DNA of 41,316 bases from the IMG/VR virus record IMGVR_UViG_2681813145_000006. One strand, 5' to 3'. The notes under the pieces were generated by a model, which was not told the DNA's origin, did not search any database, and worked only from the letters and a program-made list of their open reading frames with translations. The stretch's first letter is position 1. Each line of letters begins with the position of its first letter. This DNA comes from a virus. Taxonomy: Duplodnaviria > Heunggongvirae > Uroviricota > Caudoviricetes. Both the position numbers and the translations under genes were made by a program. This document shows positions 22,939-31,715 of the stretch, piece after piece.

Positions 22939-23359
22939 GGAACTTCGTTCTCCAGCGATTAAAACGTTTCTCTCTCGGGGATAACATGTATTGCATTCAG
23001 TCCCGCCGCCACAGCGTGCTGATTATGTTCATTGACAAGCTGCATTGTTTCATCAAGCAATTCACGACAGCGATTTGCATTCGTTTCGATGCTCAGCACC
23101 AGTGAATGACCCCCACACAACCGCCCATCCAATAAAAATGGAGAGTCAGCAGAAACAATTTCCGATTTTATGGGGTCAGTTCAACGGAAGGGCTGCTGTA
23201 ATGCTGTGGACAATACTCCTTTTGTCGCTTACTGGTTGAATATCCTGGTTTTTATGCGCTTTATCCATTGTTAAAATACAACCTCAGCCCTCCAGTGATC
23301 GGACACTGTGTGAACAATGAATAAGAGCCTTGGCTAACGGCTCCGCAAAAGGAATGACA

Positions 23360-23569
23360 ATGACAAGCTTTAATATAAATTTAAATGTAACAACAAAGGT
23401 TGAAACCATTTCTGACGTAGCTTTAGAAATTTCCCGTTTAAAAGTTACGATTGGAATATTATTGGCTAAACTACCTCCAGAACAGCGTGATTCATTCATT
23501 GCAGATCTAAAAGGCGTCGGGCTTAATGAAGAGGCCAGCTTATATAGTAATTTCAACCCAAAGATATAA
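23360..23569 (+). CDS. Hypothetical small protein, 69 aa, antisense to the late operon
   Basis: ATG at 23360 with AAGGA 6 nt upstream; AT-rich; followed by its own plus-strand terminator; no signal peptide; family not recognised. Confidence 0.5.
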   Translation: MTSFNINLNVTTKVETISDVALEISRLKVTIGILLAKLPPEQRDSFIADLKGVGLNEEASLYSNFNPKI

Positions 23570-23593
23570 TCTGAATCCATCGTTTACAGGAGC

Positions 23594-23625
23594 GGGGAGG
23601 GAGCAACCTCCCCCCTTTTCTTTAT
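23594..23625 (+). terminator. Rho-independent terminator of the small plus-strand gene
   Basis: 7-bp stem GGGGAGG/CCTCCCC (23594-23600 / 23607-23613) followed by CCTTTTCTTTAT. Confidence 0.6.
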
Positions 23626-23802
23626 CTGGTGTATGTAATATTTCCTTTTAAGTAAAACGCTCCCGTATTATCAACTGCGCCCTCAGGTTTTTTATTGAGA
23701 ATTTTTAATAATTTTGACTTCATAGCAATATTAAAAATCTTTGGGAAAAGAAACATATTTCCTCCTGAATAAATATGCGAGGATGAATTGAGTTCACTTT
23801 AT

Positions 23803-24382: not shown

Positions 24383-24658
24383 TCACCTCAACAATGGAAA
24401 AATTTTTGTGACGTTCCCGCGCGCGCGTATCACCAGCACGCAGAACAGCAGATTAAAAAACACTTCCAGCCAGCCCGTTGCTAACGGGCGACCACACAGA
24501 TAGCTGAGGGGCGCAAAGGCATACAACAGCATCAGCAGCCAGGCCAGCCATGACATCAATGGTTTGTGTCTGGAGTCACGACGACGATAAAAAAAGAGCG
24601 TCAGCACGATAACCGTGCATAACGCCACATTCAGCAATCCGGGAAGGTTACTTAACAT
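24383..24658 (-). CDS. Lysis-cassette membrane protein with three hydrophobic helices, 91 aa (holin partner or antiholin-like)
   Basis: ATG at 24656-24658 preceded by GGAGGAGG; three hydrophobic segments; overlaps the holin stop by 11 nt. Confidence 0.45.
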   Translation of the reverse strand: MLSNLPGLLNVALCTVIVLTLFFYRRRDSRHKPLMSWLAWLLMLLYAFAPLSYLCGRPLATGWLEVFFNLLFCVLVIRARGNVTKIFPLLR

Positions 24659-25040
24659 TGCCGCCTCCTCCGCCCCGCAGGCGGGAGAACAGACCGGACA
24701 CCAGTGATGCAATATCCTGCTGGTGGATGAACGAGAGAATCTTCACCGACACCACTGACACCAGCACTGCACACAGTGCGTCGACAGGCGCACCGTCAAA
24801 CTCTGTATGCTTTACCAGCCAGGATGCCAGAACCTCTGCACCCAGCACACCGATAATAAACGACACAAGAAAATGCGCCGCCACACGCCAGGCTGAAAGC
24901 GCCTGCGGCATTGTTGCCACAAACAACGCTCCCGCAAACGCACCAAACACAATCCCGAAATCCGTTCCGGTAAACAGCCCGAATACCGTCGCCCCACCGA
25001 GCGCCGCAGCCGTGCCGGAACCGGATAAGGGTTCAGACAT
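24648..25040 (-). CDS. Putative holin, 130 aa
   Basis: Start set at ATG 25038-25040 (MSEPLSGSG...) preceded by AGGAGA; hydrophobic helices then charged C-terminus; first gene of the lysis cassette. Confidence 0.55.
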   Translation of the reverse strand: MSEPLSGSGTAAALGGATVFGLFTGTDFGIVFGAFAGALFVATMPQALSAWRVAAHFLVSFIIGVLGAEVLASWLVKHTEFDGAPVDALCAVLVSVVSVKILSFIHQQDIASLVSGLFSRLRGGGGGNVK

Positions 25041-25057
25041 ACTTTTTTCTCCTGTAA

Positions 25058-25081
25058 ATAAAAAAGGGCCACCAGCGGCCC
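25058..25081 (-). terminator. Rho-independent terminator immediately upstream of the holin gene
   Basis: 5-bp GC stem GGGCC/GGCCC (25066-25070 / 25077-25081), A-run 25058-25065 gives a U-tract on the minus transcript. Confidence 0.5.
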
Positions 25082-25212
25082 GTAAAAAACACCCCGTCAA
25101 AGACACCCGCAGATGCCTTTTGTGTGGTGTTATCTGATGCGATGTACGCCGGACGTGGCGCGGATATGAAAAAGGCCCGCCGTAGCGAGCCATAAAGAAA
25201 CAAAATTCTGAA

Positions 25213-25236
25213 TAAAAAAACCGCCTAGTACGGCGG
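25213..25236 (-). terminator. Rho-independent terminator downstream of the AT-rich cargo operon
   Basis: Stem CCGCC/GGCGG (25221-25225 / 25232-25236), A-run 25213-25220 gives a U-tract on the minus transcript. Confidence 0.5.
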
Positions 25237-25331: not shown

Positions 25332-25841
25332 TTATTTGCGTTTATTGACAGGTAATATAGAATTAGCAGCATCTTTCTCTCTCTCTTGGAACGAGTTATG
25401 TCTTTTAACCATATCAGGACCAATGAGACTATAAATTACTGTCAACAGTTGCCATAAAGTTAAAAAAACCAAAATGGCATATGACGCGCCCCTAAAAATG
25501 TCCTTGTGATCTATAAAAAACGGTATCTGTTTTACTAATGGCGCAACAACGCCAATAATTAAAACTGATGCTAAAATAGCAGTAGAATGTACAATTGGTG
25601 TAAATAACCTTGTAATCCCACTGCCATTAGATTCACTCGCTGAACTGCCACCTCTAAATGATTTTTTTAATCGTTCAGGATAGATTATCGCAAACCAAGC
25701 TCCCACAACTGCAAAGATAATGGATGCTGTAGTTCGCAGGGCCTCATAAAGAGGCCACTGGGATGAGAAGGGAACATTCTTCCCAAAATAGGCAGAAAAA
25801 ATCAGAACGACCATAAGAAAAATTCCACCTAAGATTTTCAT
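25332..25841 (-). CDS. Four-helix integral membrane protein, 169 aa, second gene of the AT-rich cargo cassette
   Basis: ATG at 25839-25841 directly after the upstream stop (TAGATG) with GGGA SD; four hydrophobic segments; family not recognised. Confidence 0.65.
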   Translation of the reverse strand: MKILGGIFLMVVLIFSAYFGKNVPFSSQWPLYEALRTTASIIFAVVGAWFAIIYPERLKKSFRGGSSASESNGSGITRLFTPIVHSTAILASVLIIGVVAPLVKQIPFFIDHKDIFRGASYAILVFLTLWQLLTVIYSLIGPDMVKRHNSFQEREKDAANSILPVNKRK

Positions 25842-26694
25842 CTACATTCCCGCCTCGCGTAATATGAGCTCCCTTTTGCCTACAAGTTCAGAAAGAAGAG
25901 ATTCCGAGGACACAAACTCGGCGTCCTGTCGCTCCAAATTCAAGTGGAATTTGGTTCGTGCTAATGAACGACTGAGCCAATATGTCGTTGGATCTCCTTT
26001 AAATACAAAACCATAATCACAAGAGTTTGTATCGCTATGTTTATTCCAATCATCAATCATCCCCTCGATGTCATCAATATCAACATTCGGAGAAAGTTCA
26101 TATTTAATTTTTGTTGAGGTATTTGCAGTTTGTGGATGGCTAATATTCATATTAATCAATAGTTTTTGCCACAGGCTAAACTCGTCAGGTTTTGACACAT
26201 CAAGTTCAACAACCTTTTCAATTTTAGAAACAATATTAGCATTCTGCCTAATAACTTCATGTTTACCAGGATTTCTTACTAAACCAGCTACGAACTGTGG
26301 ATAGTGTTTTTTCTTTGGCAGCACATCATCTGTTGGGTTAATTTTATAGCCCTTGATAACCACCTCATGCGTGCCATCTTCCTTCTCCACACTTTCCGCC
26401 ACAACGTGGCTTGATGACTGTTTTAAAAAATGATAGAGATAGCATTGCATCGCCTTCTGTCCCGTCAAAGCATGGTTAAACTTGATGCTAGCCACTAAAT
26501 CCATGGATGGAATAAACCAAAAGTAAGTAGCAAAACCAGGAATACTTCCCTTCTGGATTGAATTAAGTATTACTGTTGGGTCCGTACCAAATTCTGTATC
26601 TTCCTGAACCGATGGAACACTTTGATCTGTAGAAGGAACCTCATTCCAGAGCAACAAAACCACATTGTCACCAGCACGTTTCATATCCAGAAGA
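25842..26694 (-). pseudogene. C-terminal part (about 284 codons) of an unrecognised cargo gene split by IS1
   Basis: Frame is open from the IS1 boundary to the stop at 25842-25844; the listed ORF start at 26706-26708 is a TTG inside the IS1 end; first native ATG is 26682-26684 (MKRAGD...). Confidence 0.7.
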
Positions 26695-26709
26695 GGTAAT
26701 GACTCCAAC

Positions 26710-27213
26710 TTATTGATAGTGTTTTATGTTCAGATAATGCCCGATGACTTTGTCATGCAGCTCCACCGATTTTGAGAACGACAGCGACTTCCGTCCCAGC
26801 CGTGCCAGGTGCTGCCTCAGATTCAGGTTATGCCGCTCAATTCGCTGCGTATATCGCTTGCTGATTACGTGCAGCTTTCCCTTCAGGCGGGATTCATACA
26901 GCGGCCAGCCATCCGTCATCCATATCACCACGTCAAAGGGTGACAGCAGGCTCATAAGACGCCCCAGCGTCGCCATAGTGCGCTCACCGAATACGTGCGC
27001 AACAACCGTCTTCCGGAGACTGTCATACGCGTAAAACAGCCAGCGCTGGCGCGATTTAGCCCCGACATAGCCCCACTGTTCGTCCATTTCCGCGCAGACG
27101 ATGACGTCACTGCCCGGCTGTATGCGCGAGGTTACCGACTGCGGCCTGAGTTTTTTAAGTGACGTAAAATCGTGTTGAGGCCAACGCCCATAATGCGGGC
27201 AGTTGCCCGGCAT
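26710..27213 (-). CDS. insB: IS1 transposase InsB frame (expressed as the InsAB' frameshift fusion)
   Basis: 167-aa ORF inside IS1; the A6C slippery run lies at 27150-27156 on the plus strand. Confidence 0.85.
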
Positions 27214-27407
27214 CCAACGCCATTCATGGCCATATCAATGATTTTCTGGTGCGTACCGGGTTGAGAAGCGGTGTAAGTGAACTGCAGTTGCCATGTTTTA
27301 CGGCAGTGAGAGCAGAGATAGCGCTGATGTCCGGCGGTGCTTTTGCCGTTACGCACCACCCCGTCAGTAGCTGAACAGGAGGGACAGCTGATAGAAACAG
27401 AAGCCAC
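27132..27407 (-). CDS. insA: IS1 protein InsA, 91 aa
   Basis: ORF inside IS1 with GTG start at 27405-27407; Cys-rich N-terminus [10 protein letters not shown]. Confidence 0.85.
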
Positions 27408-27462
27408 TGGAGCACCTCAAAAACACCATCATACACTAAATCAGTAAGTTGGCAGCATCACC

Positions 27463-27659
27463 TCCAGAAGATAAGCAGGTAAAACCTCATCATTTGCTTC
27501 ATATGTCTTTGTCTGTTTGAGTTTTTTCCCTTCTGCCCATAAAGCAAGATCTGTGAGCAACTCGTCACAACCACCAAATGCAGGGCTTACAACACCGTAA
27601 CGGTAGTAACCACATTTTTGAATTTTATAGAACGTAATCGTTACAGTTTCAGAAACCAT
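27463..27659 (-). pseudogene. N-terminal part (about 65 codons) of the same IS1-split cargo gene
   Basis: ATG at 27657-27659; the frame runs into IS1 and joins 25842-26694 in frame when IS1 plus one duplication copy (777 bp) is removed. Confidence 0.7.
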
Positions 27660-27830
27660 AAACTCTTATCCAAATGAAGTAGGGAAGAGTCTAATTTAAT
27701 ACCAATTCATTTAAAGTGGTTACTGGTTATTTGATCATATTGATAGTGTACAAACATACAGTATCATATCCACATCCTGCATCAAAGCAGGAATCACCTA
27801 TTGTTAGATACCATACATACTGTTTTTACG

Positions 27831-27859
27831 ATCAACAAAAGCCCACTCGGAGGCGGGCT
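27831..27859 (-). terminator. tR'-like terminator downstream of the late promoter
   Basis: Hairpin AGCCC...GGGCT (27840-27859) followed on the minus transcript by TTTTGTTGATCG. Confidence 0.45.
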
Positions 27860-27906
27860 GTAAAAATTCCTCTAACGTCAGGCATAAAACGCCCATCGTT
27901 AGGGCG

Positions 27907-27934
27907 AATTTAACACAGATTCGGGAAAAATCAA
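27907..27934 (-). promoter_or_regulatory. Late promoter pR'-like (-35 TTGATT, 16-nt spacer, -10 TAAATT)
   Basis: On the minus strand, -35 is the complement of 27929-27934 and -10 the complement of 27907-27912; sits just 3' of the Q-like gene, as pR' does in lambda. Confidence 0.5.
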
Positions 27935-27939
27935 CGATA

Positions 27940-28761
27940 CTATCGCGTTACCCTCTTTAACTGCCGCTCCGCCCATGCCTCTTCAATGTCAAACCGAACC
28001 ACCAACGTATCGTAAAAGCGTTTCACTGATTTTTTCCACGTATCAAGCGTGATAGCACTCGTCACTTTGCGTATGGCATTAAATGCCTCCGTTGATGGTA
28101 GTCTTTCATAGCCACGACCACCACAACGCTGGCAGTCTCTGATAACAGGCATACCACGTTTTACCGACTCTTCACGATGAATGGCGACACCACGCCCACG
28201 GCAATCCTTACAGGCGGTGGAAACCTCACCCTTTCCGCCACACTCCGGACACGCAACTTTTACCACCTCCCTGACTTTTTTCCATTCTTCCCAGTAAGAC
28301 GGATACACACCTTTCGTACACTTTGCCCATACCGGCGGCTTACCATCCGGATACTGGACCTTGTTTGTAAAAACTATGCTTTCAATAAATTTTTCCCCAT
28401 AGCAACAAGGGCACTGCTTTTTACTCGCTGCGCTGCGGGCATAATCCTCAAAAGCGTACGAAGCCATAATGCGCATCACTACCGGTTTTATTTCTGCCGG
28501 AAGTTTTCTCAACGCCGCCACACGATCGCACCGACTGAGTGCATAATCTGCCAGTAATTCTGTTGCCCGCGCCCTGTCATTCATACTGATGCCCATTTTC
28601 CCCAGGAACGCAGAAAAACCCATCTCAGCCCGATTCTGTGTCATGCCCTGCGCGGCCATCACATCAGTGATACTCAGCGCATCTTTTGACGTTGAGGCCG
28701 ATGCATCGGTCAGGCCAGGGGATTTTGGGGAGTAGTATTTCGGTAAATCTTCCAGTTTCAT
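27940..28761 (-). CDS. Putative late-gene antiterminator (Q-like) with CxxC zinc-finger repeats, 273 aa
   Basis: ATG at 28759-28761; motifs CPCCYGEKF, CPECGGKG, CKDCRGRG, CQRCGGRG; located between rusA and the pR'-like promoter. Confidence 0.55.
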   Translation of the reverse strand: MKLEDLPKYYSPKSPGLTDASASTSKDALSITDVMAAQGMTQNRAEMGFSAFLGKMGISMNDRARATELLADYALSRCDRVAALRKLPAEIKPVVMRIMASYAFEDYARSAASKKQCPCCYGEKFIESIVFTNKVQYPDGKPPVWAKCTKGVYPSYWEEWKKVREVVKVACPECGGKGEVSTACKDCRGRGVAIHREESVKRGMPVIRDCQRCGGRGYERLPSTEAFNAIRKVTSAITLDTWKKSVKRFYDTLVVRFDIEEAWAERQLKRVTR

Positions 28762-30635: not shown

Positions 30636-30791
30636 TTACTCCTCAGGTTCGTAAGCTGTGAAGACAGCGACCTCCGTCTGGCCGGTTCGGATTCGTACCT
30701 CGCAGAGGTCTTTCCTCGTTACCAGTGCCGTCACAATGACGGTTAAACAGATGACGATCAGGGCGATTAACATCGCCTTTTGCTGCTTCAT
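30636..30791 (-). CDS. hokD: Hok/Gef family membrane toxin, 51 aa (HokD/RelF-like)
   Basis: ATG at 30789-30791 preceded by AAGGAGAA; MKQQKAMLIALIVICLTVIVTALVTRKDLCEVRIRTGQTEVAVFTAYEPEE has the Hok pattern; the listed ORF carries a 19-codon in-frame upstream extension. Confidence 0.75.
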   Translation of the reverse strand: MKQQKAMLIALIVICLTVIVTALVTRKDLCEVRIRTGQTEVAVFTAYEPEE

Positions 30792-31028: not shown

Positions 31029-31715
31029 TCACTCCTTCTCTTCTTTTCCGTAGTGGAGTTGGCCAATTTTGATAAGAGGGCGTCCCTGAGATTTGCGGTG
31101 TAGATTGGTATCGCGCAGAGAATACACACAGCCACAATATTCCTGCTGATAGAATTTTTCGCGCTTGCTGATTTCAATCATACGGGACGAGCCGCCCTGC
31201 TTGCGCCAGTTATAATCCCAGTACACCATACCCGGATAATGCGCAACAGCTCGCCGCCCACACTCGTTAACCTGCTGCATATTTTTCCAGCGTGAAATGC
31301 CCAGTGAACTGCTGATCACACTGAAACCATTTTCAGCAGCGTACAACGCTGTCCGCTCAAAACGCATGTCAAAACACATGGTACAACGGATCCCCCTCTC
31401 AGGCTCCCATTCCATTCCTTTGGCACGTTCAAACCAGTTGTCGGTGTCGTAATCAGCATCGATAAACGGCACGCCGTGTTGTTCAGCAAAGCGAATATTT
31501 TCATCCTTACGAATTAAATACTCTTTCTGAGGATGAATGTTCGGGTTGTAGAAAAAGATGGTGTAGTCGATTCCCGAGGCCTGAAGCGCCTCCATCACTT
31601 CACCGGAACATGGAGCACAGCAAGAGTGCAGTAGTAGTTTGTTTGCCCCGTTTGGGAGCTCCAATTTAGGCCGTTTGAAATCAGCAATAGTCATAAATAT
31701 TTTTATTGGGGTCAT
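31029..31715 (-). CDS. queH: Epoxyqueuosine reductase QueH-like protein (DUF208), 228 aa
   Basis: Motif [11 protein letters not shown] near the N-terminus and several further conserved Cys; an alternative ATG lies at 31692-31694. Confidence 0.65.

Follow-up and report, generated by a model that had tools for sequence, protein, structure and literature searches.

A PDC-M18 gene pair interrupted by IS1 in the Q-to-lysis slot of a lambdoid Escherichia coli prophage, a catalogued candidate defence system of possible Rex type

The 41,316-nucleotide stretch of viral DNA analysed here (IMG/VR record IMGVR_UViG_2681813145_000006, Caudoviricetes; hereafter the window) carries a cassette of two genes, A and B, on its minus strand, between the gene of the Q antiterminator (27940-28761) and a holin gene (24648-25040). 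The cassette is the already catalogued candidate defence system PDC-M18, which was flagged as possibly RexAB-like in 2022, and the copy in the window is an inactivated pseudogene. We read the pair as probably, though by no means securely, a Rex-type exclusion module that consists of a sensor and a membrane effector and is dead in the window strain. A first-pass annotation of this DNA had proposed a candidate undescribed defence or fitness system at this position. Defence or exclusion stands as the leading hypothesis, whereas "undescribed" does not, in view of the matches to the PDC-M18 profile hidden Markov models (HMMs), the earlier listing as system #4 of the P4 satellites, and the cloned homolog pFR81, as described later.

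The AT-rich two-gene cassette that had been placed between the late promoter region and the lysis genes is present at 25332-27659, with a GC content of 0.38 against 0.51 for the window. The values are 0.395 for gene A and 0.373 for gene B, compared with 0.534 for the insertion sequence (IS) IS1, 0.509 for the window, 0.506 for the region from Q to rusA, and 0.55 for the lysis genes. The 5' part of gene A, codons 1-65 plus 2 nt, was read as an open reading frame (ORF) at 27463-27659 (minus strand), and the 3' part, which closes with the TAG stop codon (25842-25844), occupies 25842-26685 (minus strand). The two parts are separated by an element at 26695-27462 (minus strand, the same orientation as gene A) that has every character of IS1: a length of 768 bp, terminal inverted repeats, the ORFs insA (27132-27407) and insB (26710-27213), and a 9-bp target-site duplication, TCTTCTGGA, as a direct repeat at 26686-26694 (minus strand) and 27463-27471. 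Deletion of IS1 and one repeat copy in silico gives an in-frame gene A ORF of 346 amino acids (aa), which corrects the earlier length of about 353 aa. Gene B (25332-25841, minus strand) is intact and encodes 169 aa. The four hydrophobic helices ascribed to its product agree with four hydrophobic segments in the hydropathy profile (residues 1-23, 35-55, 88-106, and 122-140) and with an AlphaFold2 (AF2) model consisting of four long helices (predicted local distance difference test score, pLDDT, 71). The stop codon of gene A abuts the ATG of gene B (TAGATG, 25844-25839), as had also been read before. The gene anatomy described here is nearly certain.

In the window strain, gene A is read into IS1 to give a 72-aa chimeric product, which is identical to WP_048236369.1 (SK78_01089) and is found on a single public contig. 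Since no second contig with this product is known, the IS1 insertion is recent and private to the window strain. Intact copies without IS1, for which a search had been suggested, are indeed found. An unbroken A identical to the repaired 346-aa sequence occurs on 917 public contigs, and an identical B on at least 1000. One such intact pair is WP_029392429.1 with WP_024233158.1. Among 5426 complete E. coli genomes, 33 carry the IS1-free cassette at ≥99.5% identity; in these it is always chromosomal, lies in the same Q-to-lysis slot, and is annotated as two hypothetical proteins. The IS1-free strain E. coli KKo009 is 100% and 99.98% identical to the window on the two sides of IS1. In KKo009, the pair together with ~300 bp of its upstream DNA is at NZ_CP091673 2606336-2608200. 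A second, independent disruption was observed in E. coli CP61_Sichuan, in which an element of the IS3 family lies in the cassette (NZ_CP053730.1, 2835696-2838507); this could reflect counter-selection, or merely the preference of IS elements for AT-rich targets.

The identity of the cassette is given by the PADLOC models. The repaired A matches the PDC-M18A HMMs PDLC04496 (E 1.6e-196, residues 76-346) and PDLC04494 (E 1.1e-138, residues 1-343), and B matches the PDC-M18B HMMs PDLC04500 (E 3.4e-75) and another model (E 8.7e-68). The two genes are neighbours on one strand, as in PDC-M18; in the window gene A is broken by IS1 and gene B is intact. The best-scoring PDC-M18A model, PDLC04496, spans just the last 271 residues of A, as if it had been built from N-terminally truncated annotations; a guessed 271-aa version of A with a TTG start is absent from the protein collection. 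Neither A nor B has a match in Pfam or NCBIfam, searches of PHROGs gave families of unknown function only, and the profile of A has no match among PDB sequences. Homology of A to a known lysis or structural protein, which had been named as the finding that would speak against a defence role, thus did not appear in the Pfam, NCBIfam, PHROGs, or PDB profile searches. The scattered weak Pfam matches of 55 A homologs, among them Beta-lactamase in 5 (best E 2e-4), and Foldseek matches to class C/AmpC enzymes with a template modelling (TM) score of ~0.07 are probably spurious.

PDC systems, 145 in number, are untested candidates for phage defence that were found by "guilt-by-embedding" (Payne et al., bioRxiv 10.1101/2024.01.29.577857; PADLOC-DB v2). 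The ground for each nomination was that one or more copies lie inside a BREX, DISARM, or type I restriction-modification (RM) locus. PDC-M18 is also "system #4" of the psu-int defence hotspot of P4 satellites (PMC11754643). Rousset et al. (2022) noted a member from the P4 hotspot as a possible distant RexAB homolog under the label "RexA + 4TM" and cloned a member as pFR81, which appears in their list of further systems tested and not among the seven that were validated (PMC9122126). The two pFR81 proteins are PDC-M18A and PDC-M18B according to the PADLOC HMMs, and are 21% and 25% identical to A and B of the window, respectively.

The two genes stay together over a large family. Homologs form 71 clusters for A (at 90% identity) and 355 for B, and a profile search of A against 1.84 billion representatives gave at least 764 clusters at 50% identity, all with lengths of ~335-375 aa. 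Co-occurrence of the pair, the other property that had been proposed for examination, was assessed on 49 viral contigs with an A homolog, one of which stops before B. In all 48 testable loci, with A proteins 27-100% identical to that of the window, B lies directly downstream of A on the same strand. The gap between them is −4 to +10 nt when over-extended ORF calls are set aside, mostly a 4-nt overlap or direct abutment. Adjacent A and B locus tags are also found in Pectobacterium, Hafnia, Yersinia, Serratia, Pantoea, Providencia, and Xenorhabdus.

The flanks of the pair are very varied, with ~280 neighbouring proteins falling into 172 clusters. In E. coli the pair is placed between Q and the holin gene, and the same holds, at 49% identity, for a prophage remnant that adjoins uvrC in Providencia stuartii; some relatives have it among tail genes. 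In Mu-like and B3-like phages it is downstream of and co-oriented with the repressor gene, the order in Pseudomonas phage Ps59 being repressor, two genes, A, B, and holin. It directly follows a CI-like repressor with helix-turn-helix (HTH) and S24 domains in locus L050 and in Halomonas, where the genes of GmrSD, HEPN, and Vsr/Dcm come after the pair, and it stands alone on a Vibrio chromosome. The pair behaves as an autonomous accessory module and not as a lysis or structural component, which upholds the first-pass annotation in its view of a self-contained cargo module made of a soluble protein and a small protein with four transmembrane (TM) helices. The P. stuartii case should be noted. In a heavily degraded prophage remnant beside uvrC/pgsA (L083-L085), little more than Q, A, B, and holin/lysozyme is left, and a gene of the AIPR (Abi-like) type is close by. 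The protein has entries in 98 blocks of the collection, suggesting that the pair is kept after the prophage has decayed.

The link to Rex systems comes from the predicted structures and from the architecture of the pair. AF2 models A with confidence (pLDDT 89.9, predicted TM-score 0.81), and the predicted fold is that of RexA, which is its best structural match. B is a small membrane protein encoded directly downstream of A, and its size and the spacing of its four TM helices are RexB-like, as in RexAB. An alignment of B homologs contains 35 invariant columns centred on a QWPLxEALRTTASIIFAVVGAW...YPER motif around TM2. The invariant polar or charged residues in and around this helix are Q28, W29, P30, E33, R36, T38, Y54, P55, and R57, and the TM2-TM3 loop is variable with low pLDDT. 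B is better conserved than A, with a mean column identity of 51% against 40%.

A validated system of the same plan is known. RexABpp of Pseudomonas putida prophage P1 (PP_5643/PP_5644; Rosendahl et al. 2026) is a two-gene defence system in which the A protein binds DNA and triggers a membrane defect that depends on B (PMC12894663). In strain KT2440 (L092, 573-2134), PP_5643 and PP_5644 match only PDC-M53A and PDC-M53B among the PADLOC models (E 8e-157 and 3e-72, respectively). An identity of RexABpp with PDC-M18 was considered and rejected, because the PDC-M18 profiles give ~0 bits on these two proteins, which are PDC-M53. The RexABpp paper does not mention PADLOC.

The cassette is a mobile PDC-M18 operon of two genes, which a lambdoid E. 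coli prophage carries as cargo between Q and the lysis genes. In the mechanism that we propose, A would be a cytoplasmic protein with a RexA/RdgC fold, probably dimeric and DNA-binding, that senses an infecting or replicating phage. Once triggered, A would activate B, a highly conserved 4-TM protein presumably of the inner membrane and made from the same transcript with translational coupling. B would then compromise the membrane potential or integrity, by which growth would be arrested and the infection aborted. The operon has its own regulatory region, which holds one or two LexA boxes in enterobacterial relatives, so that its expression there would probably be SOS-inducible. In the window strain, gene A is inactivated by the recent IS1 insertion after codon 65. 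The data show the gene anatomy, the disruption by IS1, the membership in PDC-M18, the strict linkage of A and B, the variety of contexts, the match of A to the RexA fold, and the LexA boxes of the relatives; sensing, activation of B by A, membrane depolarisation, anti-phage activity, and LexA control are the steps that we infer; that the pair works like RexAB is reasonably supported.

The same architecture, a prophage-borne membrane protein with a cytoplasmic partner, would also suit superinfection exclusion of the Sie type at the envelope, in which B, with the help of A, blocks the entry of phage DNA and the infected cell is not aborted. B3-like Pseudomonas phages are known to carry exclusion genes in repressor-adjacent accessory slots (PMC9936078), a position that the pair also takes. 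However, the DNA-clamping fold predicted for A (RexA/RdgC) fits an intracellular sensor better, and the validated system of the same architecture works by membrane damage and growth arrest (PMC12894663). We regard exclusion at the envelope as quite unlikely. The exclusion genes of the B3-like phages Ps56 and Fc02 were examined as possible copies of the A-B pair and rejected; those genes are 9/10 and olg1.

The region upstream of gene A gives information on regulation. About 130 nt upstream of A are conserved together with the pair across differing insertion contexts. Of 53 loci, 21 have a perfect CTGT-N8-ACAG sequence, the core of a LexA (SOS) box, in the 250 nt that precede A, where 0.16 are expected, and the boxes comprise 15 distinct sequences; in the control region (nt −500 to −251) a perfect core occurs in 1 of 52. 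The loci in question (L008-L023, L035, L038, L045, L046, and L083) have the boxes 76-105 nt before the start codon of gene A. All loci with an A protein 48-76% identical to that of the window have either a perfect box 1 (TACTGT-N8-ACAGT) or a perfect box 2 (CTGTTnAAATnAnCAG). Apart from two of them, these loci have box 1 at 98-105 nt before the ATG. The exceptions, L046 and the Providencia locus L083, have box 2 only, in perfect form and 76-79 nt upstream; in the remaining loci box 2 mostly accompanies box 1, and the boxes are ~25 bp apart. The half-sites are conserved while the spacers drift. This is the signature of a functional operator, and the ancestral enterobacterial module was therefore very probably SOS-regulated, as judged from these alignments.

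In the window, alignment with the relatives locates a degenerate box 1, TACTGTATGTTTGTACACTA, at 27744-27763 (minus strand), with the core CTGT-N8-ACAC and thus one mismatch in the invariant CAG, and a remnant of box 2, ATGATCAAATAACCAG, at 27723-27738 (minus strand), with three core mismatches. Sites with one mismatch number 16 in the window against 13.7 expected, so that box 1 of the window taken alone is no better than chance. LexA control has probably been weakened in the E. coli lineage that includes the window, to judge from its sequence. The clade of Pseudomonas and beta-proteobacteria has no LexA boxes and has repressor operons instead. A sigma-70 scan of the minus strand from the upstream hairpins described below to gene A called no promoter; TTGATG-16-TACTGT is a candidate promoter that would overlap LexA box 1.

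The conserved LexA boxes in the enterobacterial relatives raise another possibility, namely that the pair is an SOS accessory module, with A as an RdgC-like DNA-binding modulator of RecA, recombination, or replication restart and B as its membrane partner or as a TisB-like, SOS-induced effector of growth arrest. The absence of an anti-phage phenotype for a homolog (PMC9122126) and the Vibrio copy, which stands alone among housekeeping genes, would suit this role. On the other hand, very few copies are found outside prophages, satellites, or defence-type neighbourhoods, the PADLOC nomination rests on copies embedded in BREX, DISARM, or RM systems, and many clades lack the boxes and have the pair in repressor operons. 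In addition, both the nearest relative by structure (RexA) and PDC-M53/RexABpp, whose architecture is identical, are exclusion systems. The SOS accessory role is possible but unlikely, and the Rex-type module, perhaps under SOS control, remains our preferred explanation.

Several observations weigh against a Rex-type module and are gathered here. The Foldseek search of the A model against PDB gave nothing significant and did not recover RexA. The RexA models of Pfam (PF15969) and PADLOC, which do recognise lambda RexA, do not match A at E ≤ 1, and Pfam searches with 55 A homologs (E ≤ 5) gave neither RexA nor DUF4747. The hhalign probability for A against RexA is 3% with 55 sequences and 1.2% with 200. 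No sequence or profile similarity was found between A/B and either Sbash gp30/31 or P. putida PP_5643/PP_5644. By these comparisons, A lies outside the RexA sequence family. The RexB models of Pfam and PADLOC likewise do not match B, although the PADLOC model does recognise the lambda protein, hhalign of B against a 19-sequence RexB profile gives a probability of 0.1%, and the Foldseek search of the B model against BFVD returned nothing significant. The TM2-TM3 loop is the least conserved part of B, whereas it is functionally critical in Sbash gp31. LexA repression is the opposite regulatory logic to that of lambda rexAB, which is expressed together with cI in lysogens (pRM/pLIT). The system cannot act in the window because gene A is split by IS1. 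Finally, pFR81 had no activity in MG1655 against a panel of eight phages, which is the sole experimental test of the family (PMC9122126).

Some of these observations should be read with their limits. The local hhalign, run without secondary structure, is insensitive: it gives 0.1% for PP_5643 against RexA, for which the authors' HHpred gave 98%. The negative profile results for A are weak evidence for this reason. The non-significant 200-sequence alignment of A and RexA is colinear from end to end over 262 columns, and pairs IPGF[AP]TYFW with SLGFPSFLF of RexA. In the fold search with B, rank 11 is, without significance (E 0.75, TM-score 0.41), a 165-aa protein of mycobacteriophage Sbash, A0A0A7RXT6 (L090, 6012-6509). 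Its length equals that of the RexB-like gp31, and it may be that protein. The negative pFR81 test concerned a distant homolog, wild-type phages, and non-inducing conditions, and lambda RexAB would largely fail in the same way.

The cassette is flanked by further features of the late region. The Q-type late antiterminator gene directly upstream (27940-28761, minus strand) is an ORF of 273 aa that matches Pfam PF03589 Antiterm (E 4e-52), and its counterpart in the matching region of E. coli KKo009 is annotated as "antitermination protein". A putative late promoter pR' (TTGATT, 16 nt, TAAATT) at 27903-27934 (minus strand) was read by eye and is below the threshold of the promoter scan; its hexamers presumably resemble those of lambda pR'. 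Between it and the cassette, a hairpin scan gives two terminator-like, tR'-like hairpins (27906-27890 and 27859-27840; together 27840-27906, minus strand). Downstream, between gene B and the holin start, the scan gives both of the terminators that had been noted earlier (25236-25221 and 25081-25066) and a third at 25191-25174, each followed by a T-run (25056-25236, minus strand). The first gene of the lysis cassette is the putative holin gene (24648-25040, minus strand), placed by mapping the KKo009 annotation onto the window (start 25040); holins and an M15 endolysin lie downstream of the cassette by the annotation of KKo009. Since terminator-like hairpins are found on both sides, the cassette forms a separate transcription unit, and the pR'/Q late operon is insulated from it.

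This insulation bears on a role in the late or lysis programme, in which the pair would be expressed from pR' under Q and would serve lysis timing, antiholin-like control, or a late membrane function. The position between Q and holin, which the E. coli pair shares with the 49% identical pair of Providencia, the location just upstream of the endolysin in Mu-like phages, and the small, multi-TM nature of B are in keeping with such a role. Nevertheless, the terminators on either side and the pair's own conserved upstream region with LexA boxes disagree with it, as do the copies in P4 psu-int hotspots, among tail genes, beside CI-like repressors, and alone on a chromosome. Moreover, only 33 of 5426 E. 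coli genomes have the pair, and neither protein is similar to holin, antiholin, or spanin families in Pfam, NCBIfam, or PHROGs. We consider a late or lysis function very unlikely.

The tight coupling of the genes and the stronger conservation of B also recall an addiction module of the toxin-antitoxin type that stabilises the mobile element, in which B would be a toxin of the membrane and A would regulate or neutralise it. The two independent IS disruptions (IS1 in the window and the IS3-family element in CP053730) and the retention of the pair in the degraded Providencia remnant could be explained in this manner. A classical toxin/antidote pair, however, should not tolerate the state of the window strain, in which A is destroyed and B is intact, and B of RexABpp is silent without excess A (PMC12894663). 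An addiction module is thus highly improbable, and we retain the Rex-type exclusion module.

Two further observations concern the surroundings. Immediately downstream of the lysis cassette, the stretch at 23200-23800 of the window is again AT-rich (GC ~0.37) and may be another cargo slot. It contains small ORFs on both strands, for example one of 79 aa at 23330-23569 (plus strand) and one of 98 aa at 23284-23580 (minus strand), and the KKo009 record lists these as hypothetical. Upstream of the DUF968, RusA, and Q genes, annotation transfer from KKo009 places a prophage homolog of QueH (epoxyqueuosine reductase) at 31029-31715 (minus strand) and the type I toxin gene hokD at ~30636-30791 (minus strand).

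As a pseudogenised member of a catalogued candidate, the window copy itself teaches little. The PDC-M18 family is more useful, with its at least 764 clusters and its presence in the Stx-type Q-lysis slot, in the P4 hotspot, and in repressor operons, all of them classic sites of cargo. New from this analysis are the independent structural support for the RexA link, the recognition of RexABpp as the sister candidate PDC-M53, and the conserved LexA boxes. The structural match to RexA, the validation of PDC-M53 as a Rex-type defence, and the LexA boxes of the enterobacterial members make PDC-M18 directly testable under the hypothesis of a Rex-type abortive system, possibly SOS-gated. Such gating may explain the null phenotype of the homolog on a wild-type panel under non-inducing conditions.

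Comparison with known systems places the pair as follows. With PDC-M18 the window pair shares the full-length HMM matches, the gene order, the strand, and the adjacency; it differs in that gene A is split by IS1, and PDC-M18 itself is a candidate without an assigned mechanism. E. coli RdgC has no sequence similarity to A, and is a housekeeping protein that has no membrane partner and is not phage cargo. The actinophage Rex-like systems, Sbash gp30/gp31 and CarolAnn gp44/gp43, resemble the pair in combining a cytoplasmic protein of ~370 aa with a 4-TM protein of ~165 aa, and in being prophage cargo beside the lysis cassette. In contrast, Sbash gp30/gp31 has no sequence similarity to the pair, and a DUF4747 motif is reported in gp30 whereas A has no Pfam match.

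Lambda RexAB has no detectable sequence or profile similarity to A and B; lambda RexA has 279 aa and A has 346 aa, and the conserved motif of B is without a counterpart in lambda RexB. The lambda genes lie in the immunity region and are co-transcribed with cI, whereas the window pair lies between Q and holin, though some relatives are repressor-adjacent. Enterobacterial PDC-M18 relatives have LexA boxes, while lambda rexAB is expressed from pRM/pLIT. RexABpp/PDC-M53 belongs to another sequence family, whose models miss A and B, and is experimentally validated, which PDC-M18 is not. PDC-M53 and PDC-M18 look like two sequence-unrelated families that share a Rex-like plan.

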